DNA of 64,000 bases from contig CAWGMN010000013.1 of assembly GCA_963823745.1 (NCBI GenBank), positions 38,246 to 102,245 on the forward strand, in the 5' to 3' direction. Made by a program: the position numbers and the translations under genes. Below the pieces are notes generated by a model, which had not been told where the DNA came from, ran no database searches, and was given only the letters and a program-made list of their open reading frames with translations. Shown here piece by piece: positions 1,048 through 36,508 of this stretch (its first letter is position 1; each line of letters opens with the position of its first letter). This DNA is from Terriglobia bacterium. Its GTDB lineage: Bacteria > Acidobacteriota > Terriglobia > Terriglobales > Acidobacteriaceae.

Positions 1048-1060
1048 AGTGGGGGAAGGG

Positions 1061-2612: not shown

Positions 2613-2678
2613 GGATAAGTCCTTTAAGCTGCGCGGATCATGCCGCGCCCATTAGCCCAGGTATGGGAGTGCAACTTG

Positions 2679-6463: not shown

Positions 6464-7801
6464 CTACGACAATGCCATCTCTTCCCTCTTCTTGCGCTCG
6501 ATGCCTTCGCGTCCGTCGTAGCGGACGAATTGTGGCAGCGCGATGCCCAGCACCACGGTTCCGAGCACGCACAGGATGCCGCCCGAAACTATTGACGTGC
6601 GAATACTGAACAGGCTGGCTACAATGCCGGCCTCGGCGTTGCCCAGCATGGGGCCGGACATATAGCTCACCATCTCGATCGCCGCCAGCCGTCCGCGCAG
6701 GTGATTGGGGATGGTCTGGTTCCACATGGTCATGCGAAAAAGTCCGCTTACCATGTCGGCAGCGCCCGCCAGCGCCAGGCAGAACAGCGCCAGCCATAAA
6801 TGTCCGGCAAAGCCGAAAGCGATAATCGCCAAACCCCAGATGCCCGCAGCGATGGTAATAGCCAGCCCTTGCCGATGCACACGCGCAGTCCAACCGGACG
6901 CCACGGTGACCACCAGCCCGCCCACGGCCGGCGCCGCATAAAGCAGCCCTACCGTCCCATTACCGAATCGCGTGGCAATGGCTGGAAACAGTGCCATAGG
7001 CATGCCGAAAAACATGGCGTTGATGTCTATGAGATACGTTCCCATCAATTCCTGGCGGCTCCACGCATAGCGCAGGCCTTCGGCAACAGTGCGTAAGCTG
7101 GGCCGGTCGGCGGATGCCGATGCAGGAGCAGCACGCAGCATCCACAGCGCCACCACCGAAATCAACAGCGTGGCCAGATGTATGGAATAGCCAACAGCGG
7201 CCCCGGCTGTTGCGGCAATCGCGCCACCAGCAGCAGGACCGAGAATCGCACTTGCCGTGCCGCCTGCCGCCCGCAACGCGGAAACTGCCGGTATAAGTTC
7301 CGGCGGCACCAGGCGCGGCGTGAGCGCCTCCAGCGATGGACGCTTGAGCGCGCTCAGCCCCGCAAAAATCACCGCGCAGACAAACAGCACCCATACCCTG
7401 GGGTGCGGCAGCAGTGAATTCAATATCATCGCCACGCCGACCAGCGCGGAAAACGATTCCGTGGCCAGCACCATGCGCCGGCGGTCCACCGAATCGGCCA
7501 GTGCGCCACCGATGAATGCCATCGTCAGCATGGGCACAAATTCGGCTGCGGCCAGCATGCCCACCGCCAGCGACGACCGGGTGAGCTGGTACATCTGCCA
7601 GGGCAGCACCACATAGCTCATCATCGCGCCGAAATACGAAACCGTCTGGCTGGTAAAAACCAGACGGTAATCGCGCGAGACCCGAAGCGGCGTCAGATCA
7701 ATCGAAAGCCCGTCTCGCCGCGCCTGCGAAGGTTCAACGGCAGGCTCGGGCAGCGGGTCGGGCGTAAGGTGCGCAGGGCTATGCGGCTGCTGGGTATCCA
7801 C
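6464..7801 (-). CDS. MFS transporter (EntS/MFS_3-like)
   Basis: 445 aa with about 12 hydrophobic segments. It carries an MFS-type loop motif (AFIGGALADSVDRRRMV) after TM2. Confidence 0.85.
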   Translation of the reverse strand: MDTQQPHSPAHLTPDPLPEPAVEPSQARRDGLSIDLTPLRVSRDYRLVFTSQTVSYFGAMMSYVVLPWQMYQLTRSSLAVGMLAAAEFVPMLTMAFIGGALADSVDRRRMVLATESFSALVGVAMILNSLLPHPRVWVLFVCAVIFAGLSALKRPSLEALTPRLVPPELIPAVSALRAAGGTASAILGPAAGGAIAATAGAAVGYSIHLATLLISVVALWMLRAAPASASADRPSLRTVAEGLRYAWSRQELMGTYLIDINAMFFGMPMALFPAIATRFGNGTVGLLYAAPAVGGLVVTVASGWTARVHRQGLAITIAAGIWGLAIIAFGFAGHLWLALFCLALAGAADMVSGLFRMTMWNQTIPNHLRGRLAAIEMVSYMSGPMLGNAEAGIVASLFSIRTSIVSGGILCVLGTVVLGIALPQFVRYDGREGIERKKREEMALS

Positions 7802-7873
7802 CTTGGAAATATAACGTACCCGGATAGTGCGACGGCACTCTGTACCGGCCGCTGCCAGTGGTCTTATTCAGTG

Positions 7874-9082
7874 TTATTTTTTGGCAACATCAGCTTCCAC
7901 CAGACCGCTGATCGGACTGTCTGGTTTCAAATAGGACCGTAATTCTTTATAAGGGACCACGATGAGAGGAGTGCAGTCCATGACACTCCGTCCGTCATTT
8001 GGATCACCCTCAACCGCGATTCCTGTTTTCACCAGATAGGCATGCTTTAGCGCGCCTCGCACATCGTTCACCCGGCAGTCCTGATTTGGCGGTTTGTAAT
8101 GGGCCATATAGAACCTGCTTAAAATACAATCGGGACCTGCCAGGCACTCAGAAGAACCGCCTGGATCGTCTGTATCATGGCCGCCTTGAGTATCAGGTTT
8201 GAGTTTTCGGCCATTGAAAAAACTATCTAATTTCACCTCGCGACCGTTGCGCATATCAAAAATCAGCGTGTCAAATGAAGCGTCTGGATGGGCGGTACCG
8301 GGAGTGTAGTAGCTATTCCAGAATGTCACACAGAGAACGTCTCTGGTCAGTAGAGTCACTTTGACATCGTCGTCGTTTGTGGTCCCATCCTGCTCGCCGG
8401 TTTGCGCTGATAGAATGCGTTCATTTGCAAACTTCCGTGCGAGAAGTGCATTCACTTTCTGCATGATTGCGGCATCAGGAAAATGAGTGAGACGCGGCAT
8501 ACTGGCGCCCAGCAGCTTATCTTTCCTGATGACATAGGCCATCCCCGGCGCTGCCGTGACCTCGGGAGTTTCACTCACTGGCCCCTGTAGAAGCAGGTCG
8601 AAGTATGCCTGATCGGCCCGTTTTTGATCCGAAGGTTCATACAACGATGGATCAAAGCCGGTGGAAACACGGGTGAGAGTTACCTCTGATGTTTTGTCTT
8701 GCGCTGATACCGGCCCGGTGACCTTGCATTTGCAAAAGATTCCATTCGCTGTGCCGTTCTTGAATGTAAGCAGCCATTCGGCGTCCGATGCCGACACATC
8801 GTTATCCGCATTCGTATGAGCAATTTCCTGTAAATGGATTTTGCCGTCCGCCTGCTGCTCGCCCGTGAGCGCAATTTCCATACCGTGACGATGGTAGAAA
8901 TACCGGCCCGCGACATTCTTCTCATCACCGGTAATTCCCAATTCCACAACGACTGCCTGGCCTCCCAGAGTGCCTGTATATACGCCGTTAACGGCGGTCG
9001 CCTGCAATGCAAATGAGGTTTGTAACCCGGAAAGTATTGCCAACCACAGGGCAGCCACGAACTGAATAATCTTCTTTATCAT
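7874..9082 (-). CDS. Secreted DUF3298-like protein (RsiV/PdaC extracellular-domain type), paralog 1
   Basis: Signal peptide MIKKIIQFVAALWLAILSGLQTSFA. DUF3298-like core WNSYYTPGTAHPDASFDTLIFDMRNGREVKLDSFF, and C-terminal ..PLIVVPYKELRSYLKP. Clearly paralogous to 9146..10414. Confidence 0.5.
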   Translation of the reverse strand: MIKKIIQFVAALWLAILSGLQTSFALQATAVNGVYTGTLGGQAVVVELGITGDEKNVAGRYFYHRHGMEIALTGEQQADGKIHLQEIAHTNADNDVSASDAEWLLTFKNGTANGIFCKCKVTGPVSAQDKTSEVTLTRVSTGFDPSLYEPSDQKRADQAYFDLLLQGPVSETPEVTAAPGMAYVIRKDKLLGASMPRLTHFPDAAIMQKVNALLARKFANERILSAQTGEQDGTTNDDDVKVTLLTRDVLCVTFWNSYYTPGTAHPDASFDTLIFDMRNGREVKLDSFFNGRKLKPDTQGGHDTDDPGGSSECLAGPDCILSRFYMAHYKPPNQDCRVNDVRGALKHAYLVKTGIAVEGDPNDGRSVMDCTPLIVVPYKELRSYLKPDSPISGLVEADVAKK

Positions 9083-9145
9083 ATATAACCTCACCGTGAG
9101 TGCACGCTACCTTGGGGGCCGCTCTCAATGTTTCGCCAAAATCTG

Positions 9146-10414
9146 CTAAAGCTTACTTCCGGGTACCGGCTTGACCATTTGAGCAAAATGGCTGTTGGGT
9201 TTCAGATACTGGAAGAACTCGCTGTAAGGAACCAATATCGGGTAACCGCAGCCACGGGTGGCATGCTCCTCTATGTTCAGGGATATCTCTATTCCCTTGT
9301 TAGCCAAATCAAGCTGAATGAACCCATTTACAGGATTTCCGTCCGGACCACGGACAACCACATCATCGCAACCCCCTTCATCTTCTGGGCGGCTCTTATA
9401 GCGGGAGAAATAGAGCTCGCTCAATAATGAATCCAGGGGCTGTACGCCCTTATGCCGGAACCTCTTCACCTTGGCCGGATCAACATCGTCCATGACAAGC
9501 GCATACGGATGAACTTGCTCACCGGTATCCAAATCATAGTAACGCTCGTCGTCTCTTCCTTCGGGATAGGCCCCGCCGCAGTAGAAGAATGCCCGTGGCA
9601 TGATGTCCATTAACTTAGCACTCAAAAACTGCAAATGATACGACTCCTCGGCCTCTCCCTGGGCTGCGCAGTCGGAAACAGCGATGCGGGCCTGCGTGAA
9701 AAGAATTTCCTGCTCGGCATTGATTTTCGCCATGGCGGCGGAGTTTGGAAGCCGGGTAAAGTGCAAGCTGGTCACCTTCAGACCGGGATCGGTCTTCGTA
9801 ACATACGCAACATCAGGGCTTACGTGAACTTCGGGGCTGATCTTCAAGGGAACATCCAGCAGAAGTTGATCGTAGACGGGATGAGTTAGTGTCTGATTCA
9901 CCCAGCCGGAATCCAGATCAAAGAACAGGTCCCTCTCCTTCAAGCCTTTCGCGACTCGCGTTAACGATATATTCAGGCGCGGGTGGTCATGGTCAGGCGG
10001 AGCGGTAAGTTCGCATCTGCAAAACTCGCCGGTTGCATTTTCGCCTTTGAAAGCCAAAAGCCATTCAGCTCCTCCCACGTCATCGGTCGAATCCACGCTG
10101 GGTTTGTTAACCGGCTCGCTTTCATGAAGAAGGAACTTGCCGTCATCTTGTTCCGTTACCTCCAGAGCAATGGAAAGACGATATTTGCGATAGAAATAAC
10201 GCGCAGAGACTGGCTTTTCGGTTTCTGAACTTCCGGATTCCGGTCCGCGGCCGATCGCTAAAACAATCTCCTGCTTCCCCAGTGTGCCCTTGTAGATGCC
10301 TGCAAAAGGCACGTCTTTCGCCTTCTGCGCGGCAATCAGGGGCGCGGCAGATAAAAATAATGCAGCGACCGCCATGGCCCGAATTACTTTCCTGAACAGG
10401 ATGCTCACCAGCAT
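9146..10414 (-). CDS. Secreted DUF3298-like protein, paralog 2
   Basis: Signal peptide ..AVAALFLSAAPLIAAQ. It shares blocks with paralog 1: YKGTLGKQ..ARYFYRKY vs YTGTLGGQ..GRYFYHRH, and AEWLLAFKG..GEFCRCEL vs AEWLLTFKN..GIFCKCKV. Core FFYCGGAYPEG..YYDLDTGEQV, C-terminal ILVPYSEFFQYLKP. Confidence 0.5.
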   Translation of the reverse strand: MLVSILFRKVIRAMAVAALFLSAAPLIAAQKAKDVPFAGIYKGTLGKQEIVLAIGRGPESGSSETEKPVSARYFYRKYRLSIALEVTEQDDGKFLLHESEPVNKPSVDSTDDVGGAEWLLAFKGENATGEFCRCELTAPPDHDHPRLNISLTRVAKGLKERDLFFDLDSGWVNQTLTHPVYDQLLLDVPLKISPEVHVSPDVAYVTKTDPGLKVTSLHFTRLPNSAAMAKINAEQEILFTQARIAVSDCAAQGEAEESYHLQFLSAKLMDIMPRAFFYCGGAYPEGRDDERYYDLDTGEQVHPYALVMDDVDPAKVKRFRHKGVQPLDSLLSELYFSRYKSRPEDEGGCDDVVVRGPDGNPVNGFIQLDLANKGIEISLNIEEHATRGCGYPILVPYSEFFQYLKPNSHFAQMVKPVPGSKL

Positions 10415-10621
10415 TCTTCCCTCTCATACGTAGCGGCTTTCGCCAAATTCCACTCCACTTGCAGCAGAAGAATAGCAATCAGACGGCCACTCAGAAAAGA
10501 GTTGTTTACCGCCTGTTTTTGGGAATTCCGTGTATGGGGTGACACGCGGCTGTGTGTACGATGACACGCTGCCTGGAATCCATTGGTTGTTTCGTTGCTC
10601 CGGTTCCGGACAAACGCCCGC

Positions 10622-10966
10622 TTACTGTGGCCTGGTATTCGCAGGGTTGGCCTGTACATTTCTTTGGTTCGGTGACTTCGATGCTGCCGGTTGGTTGGTG
10701 TTCGCCGCCTTTGTTTTGGCGGCTTGCTCCTGCTTCTTTCTGGCGCTCACTGCCTGCTGTTTCTGAGCGTCCAGGGCATTGATCTTTCTAAACAGAGTGT
10801 GGGCATACTGGTCCTGTAATTTCTCGAATGCCTGGCGCTGCGCCGGATTCAAAGCCGACATGCTGGTATTCAGATCGAGGCCAAGCTTGTCTTTCAACGC
10901 GCCCATGAAAGCGCCCTTCTGCTCAAACGGATCTATCTCAGTCCAGATATTTGCAACTTGTCCCAC
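10622..10966 (-). CDS. Hypothetical small protein with a Gln/Ala/Lys-rich tail
   Basis: 114 aa ORF starting 8 nt after the stop of the GH19-domain gene, on the same strand. No family recognised. Confidence 0.4.
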   Translation of the reverse strand: MGQVANIWTEIDPFEQKGAFMGALKDKLGLDLNTSMSALNPAQRQAFEKLQDQYAHTLFRKINALDAQKQQAVSARKKQEQAAKTKAANTNQPAASKSPNQRNVQANPANTRPQ

Positions 10967-10973
10967 AGTAATA

Positions 10974-12272
10974 TCAGGGTTCTTCGGCGGTAGCTTTCAT
11001 GACTTTCGTATATTGGTTTCCAACAGCGAAAGCCGGCAGGAAGCTGCCCATGCCGTTGAATCCGCCATTCACTACTTTTCTGGTCAGCGCAAGTGGATCT
11101 TTTTCCAGCTCCGACTTGTAATCCAGATGCTCATCATTCAGATCTTTCAGAGTGCGTATGTAAAGGTTCAACGACTTCTGCGAATCGAAGCCCTGCTGCC
11201 GAAGAGCTTTGGCCTGCTCTGGTCTGGCCGCCAGATGGTCTTTGAGGAATTGAGCAAAAATAAGCGAAGCAACTTTTGGATCGTCAGCAAGTTCTGGATG
11301 GCCGAGCAGGTCAATACCCAACTTCCTGCCCATCTCCTGATAATTCGCGCGTCCGGTAAGCTGCACGAACCCTCGTCCTTTGTAGCGCTCTCCGTCTCCT
11401 TTTTGTGTGTTTCCAATGCCTGCCTTGAAGTCATATAGATCGAATGGATGGTGGCCGGGCGTTTCCGGTGTGCTGGTATTGGGGTAGCGATGGGCCGGGT
11501 TATCGTCCATTCTCTCGTCTACCGGGGTGAAAGCTGAGCTCTCGGCATTGATGGTGGCAAAGATGTAGGGCATTATCTCCGAATCTGGAATACCGAGATT
11601 CGCCTTTTTCACGGCATCAACAATATTGGGCAAATATTTCGTTACATTGTCCCGGCTGGCTCCGGGAACACTCAGTTGCGCCATTCGTGTTATCTCTGGC
11701 GTAGAACCCGAAAACGTTAGCGACTGCCGCATGTTCGCAGGCAAGGCATTCCTGGAAATATCTTTGACCTGAGCACGGTTGCTTCCGGGCTTCTGGTTCT
11801 GTATAGGCTGCGGACTGGCCCCGCTTGATGAATCCCCGTCTGAGGCAACAGAACGGCCTCCCAGAAAAGCCGGCAGGGGCACATCCATATCCTTGGACCG
11901 CTGTATCCGCGAGGGCAGCGCCACCTGCGCTTTCATGTCTACGATTTCGGGCGTAGATCGCTGGGTGGCGGCCAGAATGCGCTGTGCAAGATTCGATCCA
12001 GTTTTGCCGCCTTGCGGGGAACTGTCCCCTGGCGTTGGAGTCTGCTCATTGGCCGCACTGGTGGCGGCAGAAGTTGCTGTAGCATCATCGGCCGCATAGG
12101 GCCTGCGGCCCATCTGCGCGATCTTCATTCCCAGCGAGTTCGGATCAGCAGGATCACCTTCGGCAGTGGCATCGCTATTGGCATCGGCGTCATCAAGCAG
12201 GCCGGGACGTCGGCCGCGCAGCTTCAACATGGACTGCATGTCCTGGTCATTGGCAAGGTCATCAAAGGGCAT
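10974..12272 (-). CDS. Phage protein with a C-terminal glycoside hydrolase family 19 (lysozyme/chitinase-like) domain
   Basis: It has the GH19 catalytic-region signature GDGERYKGRGFVQLTGRANYQEMG. The start is placed at M56 of ORF 10974..12437 (ATG 12272-12270), which has a GGAG 8 nt upstream and avoids overlap with the portal gene. The N-terminal roughly 280 aa are Ser/Pro/Ala/Asp-rich. Confidence 0.7.
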   Translation of the reverse strand: MPFDDLANDQDMQSMLKLRGRRPGLLDDADANSDATAEGDPADPNSLGMKIAQMGRRPYAADDATATSAATSAANEQTPTPGDSSPQGGKTGSNLAQRILAATQRSTPEIVDMKAQVALPSRIQRSKDMDVPLPAFLGGRSVASDGDSSSGASPQPIQNQKPGSNRAQVKDISRNALPANMRQSLTFSGSTPEITRMAQLSVPGASRDNVTKYLPNIVDAVKKANLGIPDSEIMPYIFATINAESSAFTPVDERMDDNPAHRYPNTSTPETPGHHPFDLYDFKAGIGNTQKGDGERYKGRGFVQLTGRANYQEMGRKLGIDLLGHPELADDPKVASLIFAQFLKDHLAARPEQAKALRQQGFDSQKSLNLYIRTLKDLNDEHLDYKSELEKDPLALTRKVVNGGFNGMGSFLPAFAVGNQYTKVMKATAEEP

Positions 12273-12372
12273 AAGAATGGCTCCGAAAAAGTTTGGAATT
12301 GCCAGCAGACGTGCCGCGCCGGCACACACAATCAGAATTGCGGTGAATCTGTGAGAATCAGTTCGAACCGTG

Positions 12373-14079
12373 TCATCCGTGCTGAGGTCTTGGAGGCGGA
12401 GCGGGCGGCTGCTGTTTCTGCGCCTGCTCCGTGCCATATTGCACGGCCAGCTTGTAATACAGCACCACGTTCCTGAAGCCGTCGGGCGCTTCGTGCTGCT
12501 TGTCGAAATTCTTTTGCGCCCAGTGGCGAACTGTCTTGACGATCACATCCATATCGTCGAGCGTCTTGTCAGGCTGAATCGAAGGCAGCTCGATCAAACT
12601 CTTTCCAGTCTGCGGATGCAGCGGCCCGGCAGCTACCGGCTTCTGTTCCATCAACACATCGAGAATGCGCAGCACTTTGTTGCGCATGTCGCGTCCGGGC
12701 ACAACCAGTCCCGGCACGCCCACGGTCTGCGCCGCCTGCTCCTGGTTGGCAGGATCTTCCATGACCGACTGCGCGAACGGGTTCTTTTCCGCCTGCTGGA
12801 TCATGTTCATCCAGAAGTCGCGCATCTCTGATGCGCTCATGGGGAAGCCCTGGTCGGTTTCCGGCAACGCATGCACGCTGCCCTGAAGCTCATCGAGGCG
12901 CACATACTGGTTGCGATACTCGCCGGTCTGGTCGGCAATCACCGAGATCAGATCGTCGGTCATGTTGGCCTGCGCGCATTCCACTGCGACTTCAGCGGCC
13001 TGGGCATGCTCTTCGCGAATGTTGTCCCAGAAGAGTGACAGCTTGCCCATGGCGGTGGATAGCTGCTGTTCCTGCCCACCCTTGGTCTCAATGTGCGGAT
13101 CACCTGCGCCTCCAAATACCTGGGGCGGCGTGCCCGAAATCAACTGCGCGGTAAAAACAAGCTGCTGCTGGTAGCTGTAGATATTGGCGTCAATCTCGGC
13201 CTTGATCTGCACAATGGCATCTTCGAGGCGGTTGCCCATGGCCGAAGCGGTCTGCTTCATCTTGACGCCGTTCAACATGCCGGGCGCCATGGACTTGCCA
13301 TGAAAGGCCTCACCGTCAATCAAATTGGAGTTGTAGAGCACGATGCCCGCGGCAATGCGGTTCATATATTCATGGGTAATGTTCGAGGCATCGTTGATGC
13401 GCTCCTGCACAGGGATGGCCGCATCGCCCACCGCCGGCGGGTACAGGCCGAAAGTTTCCTGCACCGTGCCCGCCCACGTCCACTCGTCGGTGAGCCGCGC
13501 GTCGCGGGCTTCCAGAAACAGATCGCCTACGTTCACCAGCAGGCATCCGCGGGGAAAGATTTCCTTGAGCTTGAGCGCGGTGTTCTTGTCGTCTACGGCG
13601 TTGAATGCCCACGGCTGGATCCATGTGCGGGACAGCGTGGGCATCATGTCCTGTATGAAGCTCGACTGCGACCCTTCTTCCGAATAGATCATCTGCCGCG
13701 CCATGCGCTCGTTTTGCGCCTCGGACAGCATGGGACCGAGCGATCCTTTCAGCGATTCCCACTGCTCCGGATACGAAGCGCGCAGCGACGAAAGGTCCAC
13801 TTCTTCATCCACGTTGAGAATGGGAGTCTCGCGCAGGTTCTTGGCATAAGGCGCGGAATCCACCATGAGCGGCGAATACAAAGTCATGGCCACCATGCCG
13901 TTGGGGACATCTTCACTCTGAGCCGCTACCGGAATCTCAGCCGTCTCGGCAGGATAGAAATCATGGTCGCCTAGTTCGTTTCCGCATTGAGGGCATTGTT
14001 GGGGCAAAGCGGCCGCTTGATGGACTGTATCTGATCCAGCCTGGTTTTCTCCGTGCCTGAGTGTCTCGGTGGTTGGCAT
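12373..14079 (-). CDS. Portal-like protein, C-terminal segment (frame-broken from 13961..14773)
   Basis: 568 aa. The size, a Q/E-rich helical stretch, the ISGTPPQVFGGAGDP loop and its position in the structural cluster fit a portal. The N-terminus carries CPQCG, the second half of a zinc ribbon whose first half lies in the upstream segment. Confidence 0.55.
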   Translation of the reverse strand: MPTTETLRHGENQAGSDTVHQAAALPQQCPQCGNELGDHDFYPAETAEIPVAAQSEDVPNGMVAMTLYSPLMVDSAPYAKNLRETPILNVDEEVDLSSLRASYPEQWESLKGSLGPMLSEAQNERMARQMIYSEEGSQSSFIQDMMPTLSRTWIQPWAFNAVDDKNTALKLKEIFPRGCLLVNVGDLFLEARDARLTDEWTWAGTVQETFGLYPPAVGDAAIPVQERINDASNITHEYMNRIAAGIVLYNSNLIDGEAFHGKSMAPGMLNGVKMKQTASAMGNRLEDAIVQIKAEIDANIYSYQQQLVFTAQLISGTPPQVFGGAGDPHIETKGGQEQQLSTAMGKLSLFWDNIREEHAQAAEVAVECAQANMTDDLISVIADQTGEYRNQYVRLDELQGSVHALPETDQGFPMSASEMRDFWMNMIQQAEKNPFAQSVMEDPANQEQAAQTVGVPGLVVPGRDMRNKVLRILDVLMEQKPVAAGPLHPQTGKSLIELPSIQPDKTLDDMDVIVKTVRHWAQKNFDKQHEAPDGFRNVVLYYKLAVQYGTEQAQKQQPPAPPPRPQHG

Positions 14080-14773
14080 TTACATGAGAGCAATTGCTGC
14101 ATACATACCGCGCCGGCATCACCGTGACCGACTGCACTTTGACCAGCGGCTCGCGATGCGTGCCGGCGCGGTCTCCGTCTACTACATAGCGCGTATGGCG
14201 GAAGTAGCAGCCTGACATCCACAGAAACAGCAGCCCCTGTTTGTGCAGAGACTTGATCTTGTTCTGCCGCTCGATGATCTCCTGAATGCGCGACGCGGCT
14301 TTGGCGGTGGCAATGTCTTCTTCGCGCTCGGCGTTCTCCGGCAGAAAGCGCGTCTTGGGCATCTGCGCCGAAAGCGCCGCCACAAACGCAAAGCCCAGCA
14401 TCTGGTAAAAGTTGGTGGCGAACTGGTAGAGGTTCTGGTCTTCCATGTCGCCGTTGCCGGCGAAGGTGGCCTCTACAGCGTCAAACCATTGGAACGATTC
14501 CGGATCGAAGCTGATGAAGTGGTTGCCTTTGAAGAATTCATAGGCCTTGAGCACCCGCTTCACGATCATGCGCCGCCGCAGAAACCACGACTGCTTATAC
14601 TTGCGCACCAGTTGAATCAGCTCTTTCTGCTCGGAATCGGTAAGCTGCTCGGGCTTCGATTCCTTGTGGCGTTGAGGATCGTCGGCCGTGCGCTCCTGGC
14701 CGTGAGGACGATGATAAGAAGGATTATTCATGATGGAGGTCAAAACAGTTTTCCCGCTGATTGGTGAGATCAA
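13961..14773 (-). CDS. Portal-like protein, N-terminal segment
   Basis: Protein-like up to ..VKVQSVTVMPARYVCSNCSHV, then nonsense. Removing one base of the T3 run 14079-14081 joins it in frame to MPTTETLRHGEN.. of ORF 12373..14079. The probable start is MNNPSY at 14731. Confidence 0.55.
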   Translation of the reverse strand: MISPISGKTVLTSIMNNPSYHRPHGQERTADDPQRHKESKPEQLTDSEQKELIQLVRKYKQSWFLRRRMIVKRVLKAYEFFKGNHFISFDPESFQWFDAVEATFAGNGDMEDQNLYQFATNFYQMLGFAFVAALSAQMPKTRFLPENAEREEDIATAKAASRIQEIIERQNKIKSLHKQGLLFLWMSGCYFRHTRYVVDGDRAGTHREPLVKVQSVTVMPARYVCSNCSHVNANHRDTQARRKPGWIRYSPSSGRFAPTMPSMRKRTRRP

Positions 14774-14860
14774 AAAGCAGTTCTTACCGCTGATTTACAT
14801 GCGAAGATAGTTCTTACCGCTGATTACGCTGATAAACGCTGATTAAAGAATTGGGTTGGC

Positions 14861-14916
14861 TAGAAGCTAGAAGCCAGAAGCTAGGAGCCAGAAGCTACGA
14901 GCTAGAAGCTAGGACT
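14861..14916. repeat. Heptanucleotide array, 8 units
   Basis: TAGAAGC TAGAAGC CAGAAGC TAGGAGC CAGAAGC TACGAGC TAGAAGC TAGGACT. Confidence 0.9.
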
Positions 14917-14950: not shown

Positions 14951-15053
14951 GCGTAACCGAATCCCGGAGGGATGACATTTTTGAGCCCAGCACGTGAGTG
15001 CTGGGAAGCAGAAGATACGAATCGAGTCCCGCCAGGGACGGCATAAGGTTTTT
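14951..15053. repeat. Modular hairpin repeat, family A, copy 1
   Basis: Modules are ATCCC-GGA-GGGAT, then CCCAGCAC-GTGA-GTGCTGGG (14986-15005), then GTCCC-GCCA-GGGAC followed by GGCATAAG. It is near-identical to 27850..27953. Confidence 0.85.
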
Positions 15054-15103: not shown

Positions 15104-15145
15104 TTGGCTTGAAGCTAGTAGCTAGAAGCTAGCAGCTAGCAGCTA
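15104..15145. repeat. Heptanucleotide array, 6 units
   Basis: TTGGCTT GAAGCTA GTAGCTA GAAGCTA GCAGCTA GCAGCTA. It supplies the TAG stop (15136-15138, minus strand) of the adjacent small ORF. Confidence 0.85.
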
Positions 15146-16593: not shown

Positions 16594-16794
16594 TCAGGTG
16601 TTGCCGCCTCGATCAGGCGGTTGATCTTTGGCGGCCTGCATCTTCATGAGCAGGGCGCCAATAATGGTGCCTACAATTCCGCTGGCCCACTTGAACCCGT
16701 CCTCGGGCGCTCCGTGTTTGAGCATCCAGATGGCGAGCGCGGCAAAGAAAATGGCCAGCGCAGACAAAAGCAGTTCGTTGAAGTGTGATTTCAT
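16594..16794 (-). CDS. Small two-TM membrane protein (holin-like by size and topology only)
   Basis: 66 aa with two hydrophobic segments (LLLSALAIFFAALAIWML and IVGTIIGALLM) and a charged C-terminus. Confidence 0.4.
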   Translation of the reverse strand: MKSHFNELLLSALAIFFAALAIWMLKHGAPEDGFKWASGIVGTIIGALLMKMQAAKDQPPDRGGNT

Positions 16795-16810
16795 GGGGGT
16801 AAAAGCGGCT

Positions 16811-16936
16811 ATTGGCTGTTGGCTGTTGGCTCTTAGCTTTTGGCTCTTGGCTTGTGGCGTGAGCCGTTAGCTGTTAGCAATGAGCTTTTCGTTCTTCGTT
16901 TTTGCTTTTCGGTTTGGCTTCTGAAGCTAGCAGCTA
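16811..16936. repeat. Heptanucleotide array, about 18 units
   Basis: ATTGGCT GTTGGCT GTTGGCT CTTAGCT TTTGGCT CTTGGCT TGTGGCG TGAGCCG TTAGCTG TTAGCAA TGAGCTT ... GAAGCTA GCAGCTA. It ends on the TAG stop of ORF 16934..17224. Confidence 0.8.
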
Positions 16937-19721: not shown

Positions 19722-20625
19722 GGCAATTCAGCAATTAGCATTCAGCCCGCTTGCAGCTCTGGCTGAAGGCTTCGGCTGATCGTGGGCATGGTTGAAGTTT
19801 TGGAAAAGCAAAACGGGACTTCACGACAAATGTTTCGTGGCCCTAAACAGCATTGGGGTTATAGCGATCCCTCGCTATGCTCGGGATTTAAATCTGAATT
19901 CGGAATTCAGCATTCAGCCCGCTTGCATTTTGGCTAAAGGCTTCGGCTGTCGTGGGCATGGTTGAGGGTTTGGAAAAGGCGATGCTTCGTTGCCCCAAAG
20001 AGCATTGGCGCTTATAGGGATCCCTCGCTGCGCTCGGGATAAATCTGAAAGCACCCTCGCTGTGCTCGGGATAAATCTGAAAGCACCCTCGCTGCACTCG
20101 GGATTAAAAAAGCTTGAAGATTCGAAGCACCCCGAGACGGGGTGCCATATGTTAGCCCAGCGGCGTAAGCCCTGGGTTAGAAACGGAAACAATCTGAGCC
20201 CCGCACCGGGGCGGCACATAGTTAGAATTCAAAACAGAAACATCGCTTGTCGTGCGAATGCCTTGTTACAGCATCGTGCATGATACATTTCGTGGATCCT
20301 TCGACGGCGCCCTCACTCCTTCGTCGCTCGTGCTTGCTCAGGATGACAGAACTCAGCGATTGGCATCAGCAATTAGCATTCAGCCCGCATGCATCTCTGG
20401 CTAAAAGGCTTCGGCTATCGTGGGCTTGGTTGAGGGTTTGGAAAAGGCGAATGGTTACGTCGTCCCCAAAGAGCATTGGCGCTTATAGGGATCCCTCGCT
20501 GCGCTCGGGACTAAATGTGAAAGCACCCTCGCTGCGCTCGGGATAAATCTGAAAGCACCCTCGCTGCACTCGGGATTAAAATCTGCTGCGCTGGGGATTG
20601 AATCTGAAAGCGCTCGGGTTCAATT
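19722..20625. repeat. Three copies of a roughly 180-270 bp composite element with internal ~32-nt direct tandem units
   Basis: The copies begin near 19722, 19898 and 20350. They share ATTAGCATTCAGCCCGC.TGCA..TCTGGCT.AAGGCTTCGGCT.TCGTGGGC.TGGTTGA.G.TTTGGAAAAG. Tandem units CCCTCGCTGCGCTCGGGATAAATCTGAAAGCA occur at 20012-20097 and 20493-20610. Confidence 0.85.
20127..20220. repeat. Modular hairpin repeat, family C (inverted copy)
   Basis: GCACCCCG-AGA-CGGGGTGC, then CATATGTTAGCCCAGCGGCGTAAGCCCTGGG, then GCCCCGCACCGGGGCGGCA. It is the reverse complement of the pattern at 22255..22351. Confidence 0.8.
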
Positions 20626-20819
20626 CAGGAACGGTGACGCGATTGCAAACGCATGCGCACGCCGCGGCACAGGGAACGTGAGCATATTGTTCCGCCGCCG
20701 GAATCACGCAGCATGGGCTGGCGGCATAGCCGGCATTCGGTATAGTTCACTGCGTTGCGCTGCGCCGACGAGTGCAGCGCCGGGTGATAGATCTCATCGA
20801 ATTCACGTTCTCCGCGCAT
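20625..20819 (-). CDS. Small Cys-rich (zinc-ribbon-like) protein
   Basis: 64 aa with CRLC..(14 aa)..CSRSLC. An AGGAG SD lies 7 nt upstream, and the ATG is 1 nt after the stop of the upstream ORF. Confidence 0.45.
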   Translation of the reverse strand: MRGEREFDEIYHPALHSSAQRNAVNYTECRLCRQPMLRDSGGGTICSRSLCRGVRMRLQSRHRS

Positions 20820-20820
20820 A

Positions 20821-21279
20821 TCAGGCTCCTGCTCTTTCCAGACTGTGGTATTTCTTCAACGACTGCGCATGTTGCTGCCACGCTATCTTAGGGTTCCATG
20901 ACCGCACCATGGCCCGCGCCCAAAACTGTCCCTGGGCATTGGCATTCATCACCTTTTCCCCCATGAAGCATGATTCATCGCGCTGGCCCACCGCCGAATC
21001 CACGGCCTGCTGCTGGCTGCGCAGACGCTCCAGTTCTTCTTCGGCGTGAGGCAGCAGGCGCAACGCCCTGCCATGGTCAACGAAGTAGCCTTTGCCCTGG
21101 TCGCGCCAGTTGCGGGCGCGGTCCCGGTCAATCACAAACATGGGTTTTTCGGTTTGCAGGTCCTGTGCTGAGTAAAAAACGGGAATGGCCGGATTCTCCA
21201 AGACGGTATTCTCCCTCCACACCAGGCGAGCCGTGCCCCGACTCACTGTGGGGATGCGGTCCTGAAGAAGCAACCGCAT
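20821..21279 (-). CDS. Hypothetical protein
   Basis: 152 aa ORF, apparently translationally coupled to 20625..20819. No family recognised and no clear SD. Confidence 0.4.
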   Translation of the reverse strand: MRLLLQDRIPTVSRGTARLVWRENTVLENPAIPVFYSAQDLQTEKPMFVIDRDRARNWRDQGKGYFVDHGRALRLLPHAEEELERLRSQQQAVDSAVGQRDESCFMGEKVMNANAQGQFWARAMVRSWNPKIAWQQHAQSLKKYHSLERAGA

Positions 21280-21339
21280 AGATGTATGTACAGCAAACTT
21301 ACAAACCGGACTGTACGCGAGAAAAAATCACTTGTCATG

Positions 21340-21427
21340 AAAGTGGTGTCACTACGCCGCCACTGTGGTGTCACTACGCCACCACTACGCCGCCGTTGTG
21401 GTACCACTACGCCGTCATTACACCCTC
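21340..21427. repeat. 11-nt phased two-word array, 8 units (reverse orientation)
   Basis: ..GTGGTGTC ACTACGCCGCC ACTGTGGTGTC ACTACGCCACC ACTACGCCGCC GTTGTGGTACC ACTACGCCGTC ATTACACCCTC, in perfect 11-nt register. It overlaps the 3-prime end of the RHH gene. Confidence 0.9.
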
Positions 21428-21601
21428 TCGCCGGCGGCGATGATCGCGCAACACTCGATTGATGACCGCGGAAAGGCTGCTATTCTCCTGATCGGCGATG
21501 TCGCTGTAAAAGGAATAGAGTTCGAGGGAGAGATGCAAGGTAAAACGTTTCAGCTTTTTGCTGCTCAACTGCCGTGAATTGAATTTTCCATTTTCGGCCA
21601 T
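21407..21601 (-). CDS. Ribbon-helix-helix (CopG/Arc-like) DNA-binding protein
   Basis: 64 aa from ATG 21601, with a GGAGGG SD 5 nt upstream. The KRFTLHLSLELYSFYSDIADQENSSLSAVINRVLRDH region fits the strand-helix-helix pattern. Confidence 0.6.
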   Translation of the reverse strand: MAENGKFNSRQLSSKKLKRFTLHLSLELYSFYSDIADQENSSLSAVINRVLRDHRRRREGVMTA

Positions 21602-21645
21602 ATATGCCCTCCATTTTTCCGTCGAAAAGAAATCGTGGACCAGAG

Positions 21646-21843
21646 TTACCGGATACGTTGTCCGCCAGACTCCTCCATCACGCGGCGGTGCCACTGGTGA
21701 AAAACGCGGGAATGCGCTTCTCGCAGCCGGTCTTTGGCGATCATCAGCGCGCCCACTTGATTGCCGGCCCTGAATTCCAGTTCGACAATGCCGCTGGCGG
21801 TTTCAACTTCTACATGGACCCTTGCGCCCTGTTGTGGCTTCAT
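21646..21843 (-). CDS. Hypothetical small protein
   Basis: 65 aa with an AGGAG about 10 nt upstream. It lies immediately upstream of the RHH gene on the same strand. Confidence 0.4.
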   Translation of the reverse strand: MKPQQGARVHVEVETASGIVELEFRAGNQVGALMIAKDRLREAHSRVFHQWHRRVMEESGGQRIR

Positions 21844-21939
21844 GTTCGCAACACTCCTATTTCGCTTTTTATTCGCTAGAGCAGGATCAAAATAGCGCGA
21901 GCTATATCCAGAGTCAAGATACTAGATGTAGTGGTATAT

Positions 21940-22440
21940 CTTATTGATATAGAGCAAACGGGAATGGCCTCAGCCATTCCGGGCGCCCTTTCGGGTACGG
22001 GAGGTTCATAGAACATGCGGGCTTCAGAATCAGGTGAAGCCCGTTCGCTTCATTTACGCAGGGCCTCAAGTGTATGTGCTGAATTTGTATGCGCCAACGA
22101 GACATGTAACAGGGCATGACTTCAGTCATGTGACGACACAAGTATCAGGGCACGAGTTTACTCGTGCCGTAAAAGCGCATAAAGATTGGGCTTTAGCCTA
22201 ATGTCACTTACTTTGAACGTCTGTGTTTTGCAACGGGCATTGCTGTACAAACTTTATGCCGCCCCGGTGCGGGGCTCCTCTCTTTTTGCTGGCTTTTTCC
22301 CAGGGCTTACGCCGCTGGGCTAACATATGCCGCCCCGTCTCGGGGCGGTGCTCTGAAAGTAAGTGACATTGGGCGTTAGCCCCTGCACACCTTCGACCTC
22401 ACAGTACTGTCCCCGCGAAATCGAGTTCTCACACACGCTC
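21940..22440. repeat. Cluster of hairpin repeat modules (families C and D and others)
   Basis: GGAATGGC-CTCA-GCCATTCC; GGGCTTCA..TGAAGCCC; CAGGGCATGACTTCAGTCATG; GGCACGAG-TTTA-CTCGTGCC (about 22149-22168); family C at 22255-22351; TTGGGCGTTAGCCCCTGCACACCTTCGACCTCACAGTA at 22371-22425. Confidence 0.8.
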
Positions 22441-22503
22441 TTTAGCCCCTGCGCACTCTAACAAGTGCTTCAGGTCGCAGATGGCGGCGAGACGCATTGC
22501 CGC

Positions 22504-22558
22504 GGCGGCGTAGTGGCGGCGTAGTGACACCACAGTGGCGGCGTAGTGACACCACTTG
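22504..22558. repeat. 11-nt phased two-word array, 5 units (forward orientation)
   Basis: GGCGGCGTAGT GGCGGCGTAGT GACACCACAGT GGCGGCGTAGT GACACCACTTG. It is inverted relative to 21340..21427. Confidence 0.9.
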
Positions 22559-22598
22559 CTTGCTTCGATTGGCCTTGTGCTCTACAGTCAGCCTGACT

Positions 22599-22745
22599 AT
22601 GAAGATCACACACGACGCGCTGGATGAAATGCTGCTGGCCAACAAGGCAGACAGAAAACCGCGACGGTTGCCGTTCGCCGAAACCGACGAAGACTATGAG
22701 GCCCTCATGGGGCAGCTTTCCGCCATGCGGGAACGACATCGGTAA
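22599..22745 (+). CDS. Possible small protein (48 aa)
   Basis: MKITHDALDEMLLANKADRKPRRLPFAETDEDYEALMGQLSAMRERHR. It starts 40 nt after the 11-nt array. There is no SD, so support is weak. Confidence 0.3.
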   Translation: MKITHDALDEMLLANKADRKPRRLPFAETDEDYEALMGQLSAMRERHR

Positions 22746-22867: not shown

Positions 22868-22986
22868 GCACGGCCGGAAGCCGTGCCGTAATTTCAGCCG
22901 TCCCCTTCGGGGGACTCTGTTTGTTGCTTCCACTTCCCCGCCGTTGAAACGGCGGGCTAGCTTCATACGTCCCGGCAAGGCGGGAC
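22868..22986. repeat. Modular hairpin repeat, family B, copy 1
   Basis: GCACGGC-CGGAA-GCCGTGC; GTCCCC-TTCG-GGGGAC; CCCGCCG-TTGAAA-CGGCGGG; GTCCCG-GCAAGG-CGGGAC. An inverted copy lies at 27128..27213. Confidence 0.85.
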
Positions 22987-23120
22987 TGGAGCAATTTTGG
23001 TGTCATCGGCGAAACGTTGCCGAGAACCTCTTTCCTTGGCGTGGATGAATCCCAAGCGGAATTTCAATCAAAAACCACCAGATGCATGGCGTCACAATGA
23101 TGCTATATCAACGTGGAAAC

Positions 23121-23310
23121 TATGCCGCCCCGTTGCGGGGCTCACTTCTTTTACTTCCGCCTTCTTTTACTTCGGAAACCCAGGGCTTACGCCGCTGGGC
23201 TAACATATAGCGCCCCGTCTCGGGGCGCTTGCTCTTCAATACCCCACTTACAAAATTACCCACTTACCCATTTCATTCATCTCTGCGCTCCCTGCGAGCT
23301 CTGCGGTAAG
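23121..23310. repeat. Family C hairpin repeat plus extension. The segment 23178-23309 is a direct repeat of 24466-24596.
   Basis: The shared string is ACCCAGGGCTTACGCC.CTGGGCTAACATATAGCGCCCCG.CTCGGGGC..TTG.TCTTCAATACCCCACTTACA.AATTACCCACTTACCCATT...CTGCGC.C.CTGCGA.CTCTGCGGTAA. Confidence 0.85.
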
Positions 23311-24465: not shown

Positions 24466-24596
24466 ACCCAGGGCTTACGCCACTGGGCTAACATATAGCG
24501 CCCCGGCTCGGGGCTCTTGATCTTCAATACCCCACTTACAGAATTACCCACTTACCCATTGAACCGTTTCTGCGCACTCTGCGAACTCTGCGGTAA
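24466..24596. repeat. Direct repeat partner of 23178-23309
   Basis: See 23121..23310. About 88% identity by eye over roughly 130 nt. Confidence 0.85.
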
Positions 24597-27849: not shown

Positions 27850-27953
27850 GCGCAACTCGAATCCCGGAGGGATGCCATTTTTGAGCCCAGCACGTGAGTG
27901 CTGGGAAAAGCAGGAAAATGAATAGAGTCCCGTTAGGGACGGCATAAGTTTTT
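27850..27953. repeat. Modular hairpin repeat, family A, copy 2
   Basis: It has the same module order as 14951..15053. The third loop differs: GTCCC-GTTA-GGGAC here versus GTCCC-GCCA-GGGAC. Confidence 0.85.
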
Positions 27954-32427: not shown

Positions 32428-33519
32428 TTATTCGTGATGGATCATGACGCGCAGACCTTCTTTTTTACATAAAGCTTCGTATTTCGCGATGGCCAGCTCT
32501 TCTTTCACCATCTCAACCACCAGTTCGGCAAAGCTGGTGCGGGGCTGCCATCCGAGTTTCTCACGCGCTTTGGCGGCATTGCCCAGCAGCGAATCTACTT
32601 CCGCGGGGCGGAAGTAACGCGGATCCACGGCAACGATCCGCTTCCCTGTCTGCGCATCGAATCCCTGCTCAGAGCTGCCGGAGCCGGTCCAGCGGATATT
32701 CATGCCCAGTTCAGCGGCGGCCGCCACCACGAACTCCCGCACGGAATGCTGCGTGCCGGTGGCGATCACAAAATCCTCAGGCTGGGGCTGCTGAAGCATG
32801 AGCCACATGGCTTCCACGTAGTCGCGGGCATGGCCCCAGTCACGGCGGGCCTCGAGATTGCCCAGATACAGGCAGTCCTGAAGGCCGAGCTGGATGCGGG
32901 TGAGCGCGCGGGTAATCTTGCGCGTAACAAAGGTCTCGCCGCGCACCGGCGACTCGTGATTAAAGAGAATGCCATTGCAGGCGAAAATCCCGTAGGCCTC
33001 GCGGTAATTGACGGCGATCCAGTAGGCATAAAGCTTGGCCACCCCATAGGGCGACCGGGGATAGAATGGCGTGGTCTCCGATTGCGGGACCTCTCTTACC
33101 ATGCCGTACATCTCAGAGGTGGATGCCTGGTAGAAGCGGGTCTTTTTCTCGAGGCCGAGAATGCGTATGGCCTCCAGCAGACGCAGCGGGCCGAGCGCGT
33201 CGGAGTCGGCGGTATATTCGGGTTCTTCGAAAGAGACGGCCACATGACTCTGGGCGGCCAGATTGTAAATCTCATCGGGTTGTACCTGCTGGATGATGCG
33301 CAACAGCGTGCTGGAATCGGTCATGTCACCGTAATGAAGAAAGAACCGGCAGCCCGGCGCATGGCGGTCCTGAATGAGATGATCAATTCTCTGGGTATTG
33401 AAGGATGAGGCGCGGCGCTTGATGCCGTGCACCTCGTAGTCCTTTTGCAAAAGGAACTCGGCCAGATAGGCTCCATCCTGGCCGGTGACGCCGGTGATGA
33501 GTGCGCGTTTAGGTTTCAC
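32428..33519 (-). CDS. gmd: GDP-mannose 4,6-dehydratase
   Basis: 363 aa. [48 protein letters not shown]. Confidence 0.95.
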
Positions 33520-34285
33520 TTGAGTTCACCATGGTAACGTCTGCCAGAGAGCATTGCGCGGCTGCGTTTTCTTGCTCCACCAGCAGTTTGCGGGTGAAAA
33601 ACCCGAGAACAAGACATGAATTGGCATAGACAATCGAAGTGGAAAGAGCAATCCCAGCCACTCCAAGCTTCCTCATGAATAAGAGATTCAACACCACATT
33701 CAACACTGTGTTCATTACAGCGATATACGCCATCAAGTCGGTACGATTCAGCGACGTGAGAAACCGCACGAAAAGCACAGCCCAAGTATAAAAGGGAATG
33801 CTGATGGCAAACAGCATTTGGACAACACTCACCACTTTTGTGTCTTCAGCAGTGAAAGCTCCGCGTTGAAACAGCAGACGGACTAGAGGAGTAGAGCCTG
33901 CCATCAGTCCCAATGTGACCGGGACAGTGGCAGCGAGCACCAGAAAAGAATAAACCTTCAGCGTCCGCCGGCATCCGAACCAGTCTTTGTTGGCTACCAT
34001 CTTTGAAAAATATGGAAGGACCGCAGTGTGCAAAGCAACAGAGAAAAGCACAGTGAGAGCAGTTATGGCCTTGTTTCCATAGCTCAGCGCGGCCACACTG
34101 CCCGCGCTTAAAGCAGCGGCCATGGCCTGATCAATGATGGGTGAGGCACTCATGATTACCGAACTGCTCATGAGGGGCAGCGCCTGCCGAATGATCAGGC
34201 GCAACTCGGGGCTTGAACCATACCATCGCGGCAGCAAACGCAAACCGTGAGCGATCAGTCCGAAGGCCAAGCAAAGACATCTCAA
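33509..34285 (-). CDS. MurJ/MviN-like (MOP superfamily) flippase, C-terminal segment
   Basis: Polytopic. It contains ..[38 protein letters not shown].. and continues ORF 34131..34958 after a frame break. Confidence 0.7.
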
Positions 34286-34958
34286 TCGCAGAGCCGATCA
34301 CCGTTCCAGCCGCCAGGGAAAAAACGCCTAAGTCCCGGCCGGTGGCAAACAGAAAACCAAAAATAACCAGAGGAGTAACTACAGGGGTGAGAGCGGGCAG
34401 CGCGAATTTTTCGCGAGAATTCAGTAAAGCCGACCATACAGCAATCATTCCACTGAGAAGAATGAAAGGGGTCAGCGCATATAGAAGATGACGGGTGAGC
34501 AACAGCTTTGCTGGGCTGAATCCAGCACCGAGCAGAGGCAGATAAAAAGGCGCAGTCAGAACCAGCAGAACGGAGACTGCTGCGAATACCAGAAAAACAA
34601 CAACCTGAAGGCTGGAAAACAGGCGTTGGGCCGTTTCCGGTCCCTGCTGGTCTCTCGTTTTGATATACACCGGTACCAGGGTCGCGCTGAACGCAGCGGC
34701 CACAAAGCTCGCAATGCTTGCCGGGAGCAACAGCGCCAGAAGAAAGGCGTCCAGGGCGTCACCGCGCCCGAACCAGTTGGCGACTGCAACCTCTTTGCCG
34801 GTCGAGGCAAGTTTGGCCAGCACGGAACAGCCTCCGACGATGACCACAGCGCGAAAAATTTTCCAGTTGGTTGTCATCGGCTTGTCCGGCGATGTAGGCC
34901 GGAGTCCAATGCTTTCCAGCAGTCTAGAAATCATCATGGATGAGAGCGAGAACACCAA
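34131..34958 (-). CDS. MurJ/MviN-like flippase, N-terminal segment
   Basis: ..VLAKLASTGKEVAVANWFGRGDALDAFLLALLLPASIASFVAAAFSATLVPVYI.. is a typical MurJ N-terminus. The tail after about 34290 is nonsense. Confidence 0.7.
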   Translation of the reverse strand: MVFSLSSMMISRLLESIGLRPTSPDKPMTTNWKIFRAVVIVGGCSVLAKLASTGKEVAVANWFGRGDALDAFLLALLLPASIASFVAAAFSATLVPVYIKTRDQQGPETAQRLFSSLQVVVFLVFAAVSVLLVLTAPFYLPLLGAGFSPAKLLLTRHLLYALTPFILLSGMIAVWSALLNSREKFALPALTPVVTPLVIFGFLFATGRDLGVFSLAAGTVIGSAIEMSLLGLRTDRSRFAFAAAMVWFKPRVAPDHSAGAAPHEQFGNHECLTHH

Positions 34959-36226: not shown

Positions 36227-36508
36227 CAATTTTCCCGAACTGAATATTGGAACACATGGCACATGAAGCGCGATTCGTCACTTCTTCGAATATAATTTTT
36301 TTCGATACAAAGGTGTACCAATAGGGACTTTATTGCGCAGTTCAATCGCGATTGGACCCGAAGCTTTGCCGGTACTATAGTGGTACTCGAGAAGCATCCG
36401 ACCGTTTTTGCTGTCGCCTGTGCTCCATATTGTATTTAAACATGACCTTATAAGAACAAACGTGAGACGCTCGATTCGCGAATCGCTTCTCCCTGGAACT
36501 CTGCCAAG

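Follow-up and report, generated by a model that had tools for sequence, protein, structure and literature searches.

Three arrays of directly repeated 11-nucleotide (nt) units, designated A, B and C, are present in a 64,000-nt stretch of DNA from a Terriglobia bacterium (contig CAWGMN010000013.1, positions 38,246 to 102,245), which we refer to as the window. These arrays are a real, conserved and regulatory feature. Judging from the sequence, they most likely form the iterated operator of a new and small family of Arc-like ribbon-helix-helix (RHH) proteins on an acidobacterial genomic island. Every array stops 1 to 3 nt before a hexamer resembling a promoter -35 element, with a -10-like hexamer 17 nt beyond, and array A lies at the end of the gene for a 64-amino-acid (aa) protein of Arc-like character. 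Moreover, an array of seven or eight units with an 11-nt period is located between this RHH gene and a homologue of a 126-aa protein gene in each of four related loci that were found via RHH homologues and compared with the window (L080, L081, L082 and L083, the last of which is partly duplicated as the short locus L084).

The original prediction described two 11-nt words, W1 and W2, that are concatenated in variable order, and the arrays it described are confirmed: the three sites contain eight, five and seven units in exact 11-nt register, far above chance (Table 1). Read towards the promoter, array A consists of GAGGGTGTAAT GACGGCGTAGT GGTACCACAAC GGCGGCGTAGT GGTGGCGTAGT GACACCACAGT GGCGGCGTAGT GACACCACTTT, array B of W1 W1 W2 W1 GACACCACTTG, and array C of GGCGGTGTAGT GGCACCACAAC W1 GGTACCACAAC W1 W1 GACACCATTGC. 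When one mismatch is allowed, the window contains 14 matches to W1 compared with 0.99 expected, a number reached by none of 100 shuffled sequences, and 11 of the 14 fall within the arrays, spaced 11 or 22 nt apart. Similarly, phased runs of two or more copies of a degenerate unit (G....CRYARY) are confined, across the whole window, to these three arrays (shuffles give 0.16), and at each site Tandem Repeats Finder detects repeats with periods of 11, 22 and 33. Array B in its entirety and the five units of A nearest to the promoter constitute a 55-nt inverted repeat with 98% identity, and positions 39159-39207 of C are 98% identical to positions 21366-21414 of A. No similarity among the three was found outside the arrays themselves. 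Array A overlaps the 3′ end of the RHH gene as had been claimed, with the stop codon inside the array and the C-terminal GVMTA* of the protein encoded by its units 1 and 2. The distance between array B and the next start codon is likewise as first described.

The two words are, on their letters, versions of a single unit: a 7-base-pair (bp) dyad-type core, C-R-Y-A-R-Y-G, with a central invariant A, plus a 4-nt spacer. Specifically, G1, C6 and A9 are almost invariant over 44 units, and column counts give R7, Y8, R10 and Y11 for other positions. In the register that runs from C6 to G1′, 34 of the 44 units fit {CGT|CAC}-A-{ACG|GTG}, compared with 0 to 19 in other registers, and the right halves of this core are the reverse complements of the left halves. 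W1 carries CGT.A.GTG and W2 carries CAC.A.GTG, with CAC.A.ACG as a distal form of W2. The core in L082 and L083, CGT.A.ACG, is a palindrome with 82% dyad pairs. A strictly palindromic core was considered; this holds for L082 and L083 but fails in the window group, and a description with two types of half-site was adopted instead. The spacers come in two flavors in both lineages, one GC-rich (GCGG, CCGC, ACGG) and one CAC-type (ACAC, GCAC, GTAC), and the order of these flavors differs between L082 and L083. A dyad-type core that recurs once per helical turn fits a symmetric dimer on each unit rather than a monomer binding head-to-tail.

Comparison of the related loci reveals what has been retained as the sequences diverged. 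In L080 and L081, the RHH protein is 91% and 80% identical, respectively, to that of the window, and array A is kept in the same register with its promoter-proximal units best preserved. In L082 and L083, the protein is about 52-63% identical over the aligned part, the words of the seven or eight units differ (GCCGCCGTAAC, GGCACCGTAAC, GACACCGTAAC; CCGTAAC-type), and alignment is lost in the stretch that separates the array from the RHH stop codon. The array of L084 also has diverged words. The period, unit number and phase to the -35 hexamer are nevertheless kept within 1 nt in L082 and L083, where the arrays end one base before GTGACA-17-TAAACC. Retention of period, count and phase despite the divergence of both flanks and words provides the strongest argument for function. 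Exact-pattern scans beyond these loci covered collections of genome contigs (77 loci), metagenome contigs (2) and viral contigs (3), none of which includes the source genome, and returned only lone chance matches in the coding DNA of unrelated organisms. A blastn search with array A of phage and plasmid collections yielded no match, and the module proteins have no relatives in IMG/VR.

The promoter-like site of array A is also retained. After array A in L080 through L083, the hexamers are (A/G)TGACA or AACACA followed, 17 nt further on, by TACATT or TAAACC. The promoter-like site beside array B ends 10 nt before an ATG, so its transcript would be almost leaderless. In L081, TACATT lies 6 nt before the ATG of the homologue of this 48-aa gene, and GGCGGCTGGTGGTAC, similar to one W1-W2′ junction, overlaps the -10 of that gene. 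The operon that includes the RHH gene has its own promoter, and the complement of the conserved block upstream of it, TGTAGTGGTAT, resembles the array core. Every related locus that covers this promoter (L080 through L083) carries the block ATATACCACTA[CT]AT...CTTGAC. The core-like TGTAGTGGTAT may mediate autoregulation.

The 64-aa protein is probably an RHH protein, as indicated by profile comparisons. It matches PHROG 582 ('Arc-like repressor', E 1.1e-4), PHROG 228 (E 0.053) and a YbfE-like model of NCBIfam (E 0.035), and hhalign comparison of the family profile gives E 9e-5 (probability 60%) with P22 Arc and E 2.6e-3 with CopG. The segment RFTLHLS is superposed on Arc QFNLRWP, such that R19, T21 and H23 fall on Q9, N11 and R13, which are the base-contacting residues of Arc. 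The pattern of RFTLHLS, helix, 'SS' turn and helix is invariant in three close homologues. The change in words in L082 and L083 is accompanied by replacement of H23 in the strand by Y, which is a single co-variation event. A sequence search of the PDB gave one marginal match, to an anti-CRISPR protein (E 0.27). The family comprises five proteins found by a word-indexed search of 5.8 billion sequences and an exhaustive HMMER search of 1.84 billion. Its most distant member (P0005, locus L085) is encoded beside a DUF4160 gene in a context unrelated to the island, and an inverted repeat at 440-475 of that locus, GTAGTGC-N8-GCACTAC, lies over the -10 of its own gene and shares GTAGTG with the array core.

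We lean, with modest confidence, towards the view that the arrays are cooperative operators of this Arc-like protein that act on the adjacent promoters, and we infer both the binding of one dimer per unit and the sign of regulation. Each 11-bp unit would bind one dimer of the protein encoded at 21407-21601, and dimers placed one helical turn apart would align on one face of the DNA and contact each other. The resulting filament of five to eight dimers would reach the -35 hexamer of the adjacent promoter and govern access by RNA polymerase. The most likely outcome would be repression, which is the default for the RHH superfamily, whereas activation is also conceivable given the weak -35 hexamers. 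Array A would control the operon for the 126-aa and zinc-ribbon proteins just downstream of the RHH gene, array B a divergent 48-aa gene, and array C an orphan promoter in a host polysaccharide cluster. The operator-array part of the original prediction is supported by the promoter-like hexamers, the Arc-like neighbor and the linkage in four loci.

Several observations weigh against this view. The 64-aa protein matches no Pfam family, RHH models included, at E <= 0.1. An AlphaFold2 monomer model, built from a three-sequence alignment with a predicted local distance difference test (pLDDT) score of 84, has a helix where the strand is expected, and Foldseek matches to AvtR, CdbA, Arc and CopG cover the two helices only, all with E > 1. 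The commonest core in the window group, CGTAGTG, is non-palindromic, with 42% dyad pairs. The words diverged in a single event, in step with both the host and the RHH lineages, and synteny alone would hold the array beside the RHH gene, so linkage is no proof of binding. Furthermore, the RHH-operon promoter site is unchanged in L082 and L083 despite the changed array words, and array C has neither a nearby gene for an RHH or other DNA-binding protein nor a clear target gene. Finally, the promoters are identified only by their match to a consensus, and few promoters of this phylum have been studied.

The main rival explanation, which we consider unlikely, is that a winged-helix response regulator of the OmpR/PhoB family from the host binds the 11-bp direct repeats head-to-tail and activates weak promoters, in which case the island genes and the promoter in the polysaccharide cluster would share a host signal. 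Direct repeats with an 11-bp period that abut or replace the -35 element are the classic layout for PhoB/PhoP-type activators, and Streptomyces PhoP operators can hold many repeat units. The arrays resemble PHO boxes and OmpR operators in exactly this respect, with direct repeats of 10-11-bp period at the -35 position. In addition, the -35 hexamers are weak (ATGACA, TTGCTT and TTGCAT), every unit has the same orientation relative to its promoter, array C is situated in host DNA outside the island, and the genes for an OmpR-family regulator (44591-45298) and a histidine kinase (43124-44533) border the polysaccharide cluster at a distance of 5.4 kb from this array. However, the arrays of L082 and L083 have no response regulator gene less than 10 kb away, no phased unit doublet exists upstream of the regulator/kinase operon or elsewhere in the window, and five to eight contiguous near-perfect units are unusual for the OmpR family. 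PHO-box units are read head-to-tail by monomers and have no internal dyad, whereas the core described here has a dyad symmetry that is unexpected for a protein binding one monomer per repeat. An asymmetric, monomer-read unit was not found at the arrays, where the dyad construction appears in one register only. Unlike PHO boxes, these arrays travel with an RHH gene and not with a response regulator.

A second alternative, distinctly improbable in our judgment, is that another island protein (the 65-aa, 126-aa or zinc-ribbon protein) binds the arrays, either alone or in complex with the RHH protein, and that the two spacer flavors (GCGG-type and ACAC-type) might be read by two partners. Both flavors are found in each lineage, including L082 and L083 with their uniform core. 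The genes for the 126-aa and zinc-ribbon proteins are always downstream of an array, which makes autoregulation by their products possible, and Pfam, PHROG, NCBIfam and PADLOC assign no known function to any of these three proteins. Yet none of them shows a DNA-binding signature, the 65-aa gene is replaced in L082 and L083 where the array is still present, and the order of the flavors is not kept between those two loci.

It is very unlikely that the arrays act on DNA as a partition site, replication iterons, mobile-element ends or inversion substrates for the segment at 21428-22503. The original prediction had also entertained such a role, in the form of an inverted pair of arrays bracketing a segment for recombination or partition. 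In keeping with this, A and B form the inverted repeat described above, the module is at one end of an island that lies beside a tRNA-Arg gene in L082 and L083, and parC-type centromeres are 11-bp iteron arrays bound by RHH proteins (PMC2241845). Nevertheless, array B was not found in L081, L082 or L083, whereas A persists, and family scans recognized no ParM/ParA-type nucleoside triphosphatase (NTPase), Rep, transposase or recombinase in or beside the module. These two results make the inverted bracket look incidental. Because A and B both face outward to promoters, their inversion is most simply explained by two divergent regulated promoters. The locus is also chromosomal, all arrays are precisely placed against a promoter-like site, and the phage and plasmid collections hold no match. 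Two specific forms of this idea were rejected. Replication-origin iterons are disfavored by the lack of a Rep-like match in the module and by flanks of about 55% G+C with no visible AT-rich tract, and Tn7- or Mu-type ends by the content of the segment between A and B, which is limited to the 65-aa gene, the RHH gene and dispersed repeats, and by the absence of B from relatives that keep A.

Least credible of all is the proposal that the arrays are neutral, slippage-prone minisatellites spread by gene conversion and devoid of function: the 98% identity among parts of A, B and C suggests recent copying, and short repeats of other kinds, both tandem and dispersed, abound in the genome, but the position, period, count and -35 phase of A are kept in relatives with unalignable flanks and other words, and G1, C6 and A9 are near-invariant.

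Among known systems, the closest architectural parallel is the parC site of plasmid R1, where two sets of five 11-bp iterons each bind about one dimer of the RHH protein ParR cooperatively and also serve as an operator (PMC2241845). The locus described here likewise combines an RHH candidate with blocks of tandem direct 11-bp iterons (five to eight per block). However, parC flanks the promoter of the RHH gene itself, whereas the present arrays lie downstream of the RHH gene and before the promoters of other genes, on a chromosomal island rather than a plasmid. In sequence, the 64-aa protein has no detectable resemblance to ParR and matches Arc-like profiles best, and a search for a partition NTPase (ParM or ParA) among the module proteins (48, 65, 64, 126 and 64 aa) returned no family match. 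The small RHH protein omega of the inc18 plasmid pSM19035, a global regulator, binds variable sets of contiguous heptads at several promoters as cooperative dimers of dimers (PMC3130281). Similarities to omega include a small RHH candidate and several arrays near promoters with variable unit number and arrangement. Unlike the 7-bp omega sites, the units here are 11 bp, all direct and none inverted, there is no ParA (delta) partner, and one array lies outside the mobile element. The RHH protein ParG of TP228 binds parH, about 100 bp of degenerate short boxes with spacers that act as both centromere and operator (PMC3130281), although these boxes are tetramers (ACTC) with AT-rich spacers and the system requires the ATPase ParF, neither of which is seen here. 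Thus, the locus belongs to neither the ParR/parC nor the omega system, given the absence of a partition NTPase and of a plasmid, a unit length other than that of omega, and the different placement of the arrays.

At the level of protein sequence, the closest relative of the 64-aa protein is Arc of the Arc/Mnt (immI) system of phage P22, as judged by PHROG and hhalign. On its operator, Arc binds as two dimers that share one face of the DNA at a spacing of about 11 bp. The context is Arc/Mnt-like in that the gene is on an island beside phage-like genes. Among the differences, no ant-like gene was recognized at the locus, and each Arc or Mnt operator is a single site (21 bp or 17 bp) that accommodates one tetramer, whereas arrays of five to eight units are present here.

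If the proposed binding is correct, the locus would represent a compact and previously undescribed RHH/iterated-operator switch in Acidobacteria, a phylum for which, to our knowledge, almost no transcription factors or promoters have been characterized. The general concept would be unchanged, since the principle has already been set by ParR/parC and omega. The 20 near-perfect sites in three arrays would offer clean material for learning how RHH filaments read DNA, together with a natural specificity variant in the relatives (GTAGT with H23 versus GTAAC with Y23) and the mix-and-match pattern of half-sites. Array C would show an island regulator reaching host genes.

Array C is located about 16 kb beyond the island boundary as inferred from synteny, and is followed by a terminator-like hairpin (39249-39262) and then by about 500 nt with no convincing open reading frame (ORF). 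The possibility that it is the remnant of a second island was rejected, since no similarity extends beyond the array and neighboring methyltransferases are only 23-29% identical to island cargo. A split gene for a priming sugar transferase converges on the array. It is improbable that the Arc-like regulator of the island, through array C and a promoter directed antisense towards this transferase gene, rewires envelope synthesis of the host; were it true, a mobile island that possibly stems from a phage would be carrying out lysogenic conversion by means of regulation, and the two unit flavors would permit graded or combinatorial occupancy. The transferase (CoA_binding_3 plus Bac_transf) is divided between 39727-40290 and 40151-41206 (minus strand), and a MurJ-type flippase is similarly divided into overlapping ORFs at 33509-34285 and 34131-34958 (minus strand). 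In each pair the ORFs cover consecutive parts of the family profile, which indicates frameshifts caused either by gene decay or by sequencing errors. A second and unrelated array begins 150 nt past C, within the stretch that has no convincing ORF, and contains seven copies of TGTAGCG(G/C)A with a 9-nt period (39361-39406 and 39444-39461, plus strand); this motif has 8 matches in the window versus 0.86 expected.

Table 1. Coordinates of the arrays, their promoter-like sites and other features of the window.
Feature	Position	Strand	Basis or remark
Array A	21340-21427	-	8 units of 11 nt; overlaps final 21 nt of RHH gene; 1 nt short of -35
Array B	22504-22558	+	5 units of 11 nt; 40 nt before ATG at 22599
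Array C	39135-39211	+	7 units of 11 nt; inside polysaccharide gene cluster
Promoter-like site of array A, ATGACA-17-TACAGT	21310-21338	-	promoter scan
Promoter-like site of array B, TTGCTT-17-TACAGT	22560-22588	+	by eye; 8/12 matches, below scan threshold
Promoter-like site of array C, TTGCAT-17-TACTCT	3′ of array C	+	by eye
64-aa Arc-like RHH candidate, proposed array binder	21407-21601	-	PHROG and hhalign
65-aa gene, first of the RHH-gene operon	21646-21843	-	kept only in L080 and L081
Promoter of the 65-aa/RHH operon, TTGACT-17-TATTTT	21889-21936	-	with conserved upstream block (A)TACCACTA(C)
126-aa gene, function unassigned, presumed target of array A	20821-21201	-	tblastn: kept in L080-L084, 39-91% identity
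Conserved leader block	21195-21309; L080 1579-1693; L081 4691-4807; L082 4228-4390; L083 4459-4585	- (window)	
64-aa Cys-rich (zinc-ribbon-like) gene	20625-20819	-	downstream of and co-oriented with 126-aa gene; 49-93% identity in L080-L083
48-aa gene, presumed target of array B	22599-22745	+	L081 homologue 65% identical over 34 aa
Terminase-large-subunit-like protein	4364-6076	-	PHROG
GH19 endolysin-like protein	10974-12437	-	phage-like match
Weak major-head match	1335-2612	-	phage-like match
MFS transporter gene, embedded in phage-like run	6464-7801	-	
Heptamer arrays	63-134, 1059-1126, 14859-14914, 15107-15145, 16807-16858, 61154-61295, others		also in L082 and L083

Between the promoter of array A and the 126-aa gene is a leader of about 110 nt. 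Five loci have in common the block CCAGTGAG.CGGG...GCTCGC.TG.TG..G.GGGAG in this leader, plus two hairpins, one of which shows compensatory changes. The block is non-coding in L081 and L082, and a 152-aa ORF that begins at ATG 21279 is probably not all coding because both of these loci have stop codons there. The leader after array A folds no better than shuffled sequences (z = -0.55). A role at the RNA level was rejected, as no Rfam match was obtained over the arrays or the region after C and the folding energy of the leader is unexceptional. For the 126-aa protein, searches of Pfam, PHROG, NCBIfam and PADLOC gave no match, the defense models of PADLOC matched none of the scanned genes, and the AlphaFold2 model of this protein (pLDDT 42) is unusable.

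The syntenic block shared with L082 and L083 comprises the RHH gene and the genes for the 126-aa protein, the zinc-ribbon protein, the N-terminal half of a 533-aa protein, and 96-aa and 66-aa membrane proteins. This island abuts tRNA-Arg(CCT) and a BON-domain gene in L082 and L083, with the tRNA genes at 2203-2279 and 1961-2037 (minus strand), respectively, whereas OmpA and VWA genes are present in the window and L081. Because host flanks differ between the groups, the island is a mobile one, with the regulatory module at one end. The flanks (OmpA, VWA and the polysaccharide cluster in the window, tRNA-Arg and BON in relatives) and the absence of a match in the plasmid collection place the locus on the chromosome. 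An unrelated gene of 75-82 aa takes the place of the 65-aa gene in L082 and L083. Between the tRNA and the RHH operon, these two loci carry genes absent from the window, including one for a 145-aa protein, and in L082 alone a 91-aa gene is called whose product weakly matches the B-box zinc finger. The 66-aa membrane protein (16594-16794, minus strand), which has two predicted helices and is holin-like only as a guess, is 77-81% identical in L082 and L083, where conservation is much lower for the regulator (about 52-63%) and for the 126-aa protein (about 40%).

Phage-like genes border the island in the window, among them one for a protein matching the terminase large subunit (PHROG 2, E 2e-12), which has no match in GenBank phages or the PDB. 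A run of genes on the same strand extends from 301 to 14773 (minus), mostly with no family match. The run that adjoins the island may be a very divergent prophage, a label that comes from PHROG matches only. L083 has no phage-like genes within reach. Homologues of the 533-aa protein carry signal peptides, and this protein shares just a domain of about 70 aa with viral contigs, which have no array.

Other repeats are common in the window. According to the original prediction, hairpin repeats occupy about 500 nt of the segment enclosed by arrays A and B, and these repeats indeed include a copy of the Rfam motif Acido-Lenti-1 (RF01687) at 22299-22347, with a score of 36 bits against a gathering score of 37. 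The presence of Acido-Lenti-1 RNA motifs points to a genome of the Acidobacteria type. Copies are dispersed between genes in a manner resembling repetitive extragenic palindromes at 14960-15005 (minus), 27860-27905 (minus) and 24467-24515 (plus). Besides the one between the arrays, sub-threshold copies lie at 22937-22987 and 23179-23227 (plus) and at 20128-20176 (minus), and a similar copy is present at 2420-2466 of L080. The intergenic heptamer arrays (GCTCTTG x10, GCTAGAA x8, GTACTTG x8 and others) differ in unit at each site. Between the zinc-ribbon and 533-aa genes, a 32-nt unit, CCCTCGCTGCGCTCGGGATAAATCTGAAAGCA, forms two tandem arrays (20022-20104 and 20493-20606) of about 2.6-2.8 copies each.

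The sequence GGTACTATAGTGGTAC at 36370-36388, in the divergent promoter region between a glycosyltransferase and a methyltransferase gene, contains TACCACTA, which is common to this site, the block at the RHH-operon promoter, and arrays A and C, perhaps by chance. Matches of the TACCACTA type number 4 versus 0.43 expected, and two of the four lie within arrays. Elsewhere, tandem repeats of 240 nt (53540-53990 and 56530-57104) are explained by a gene at 52523-57673 (minus strand), whose 1716-aa product combines 14 MBG domains with a beta-propeller and DUF11.

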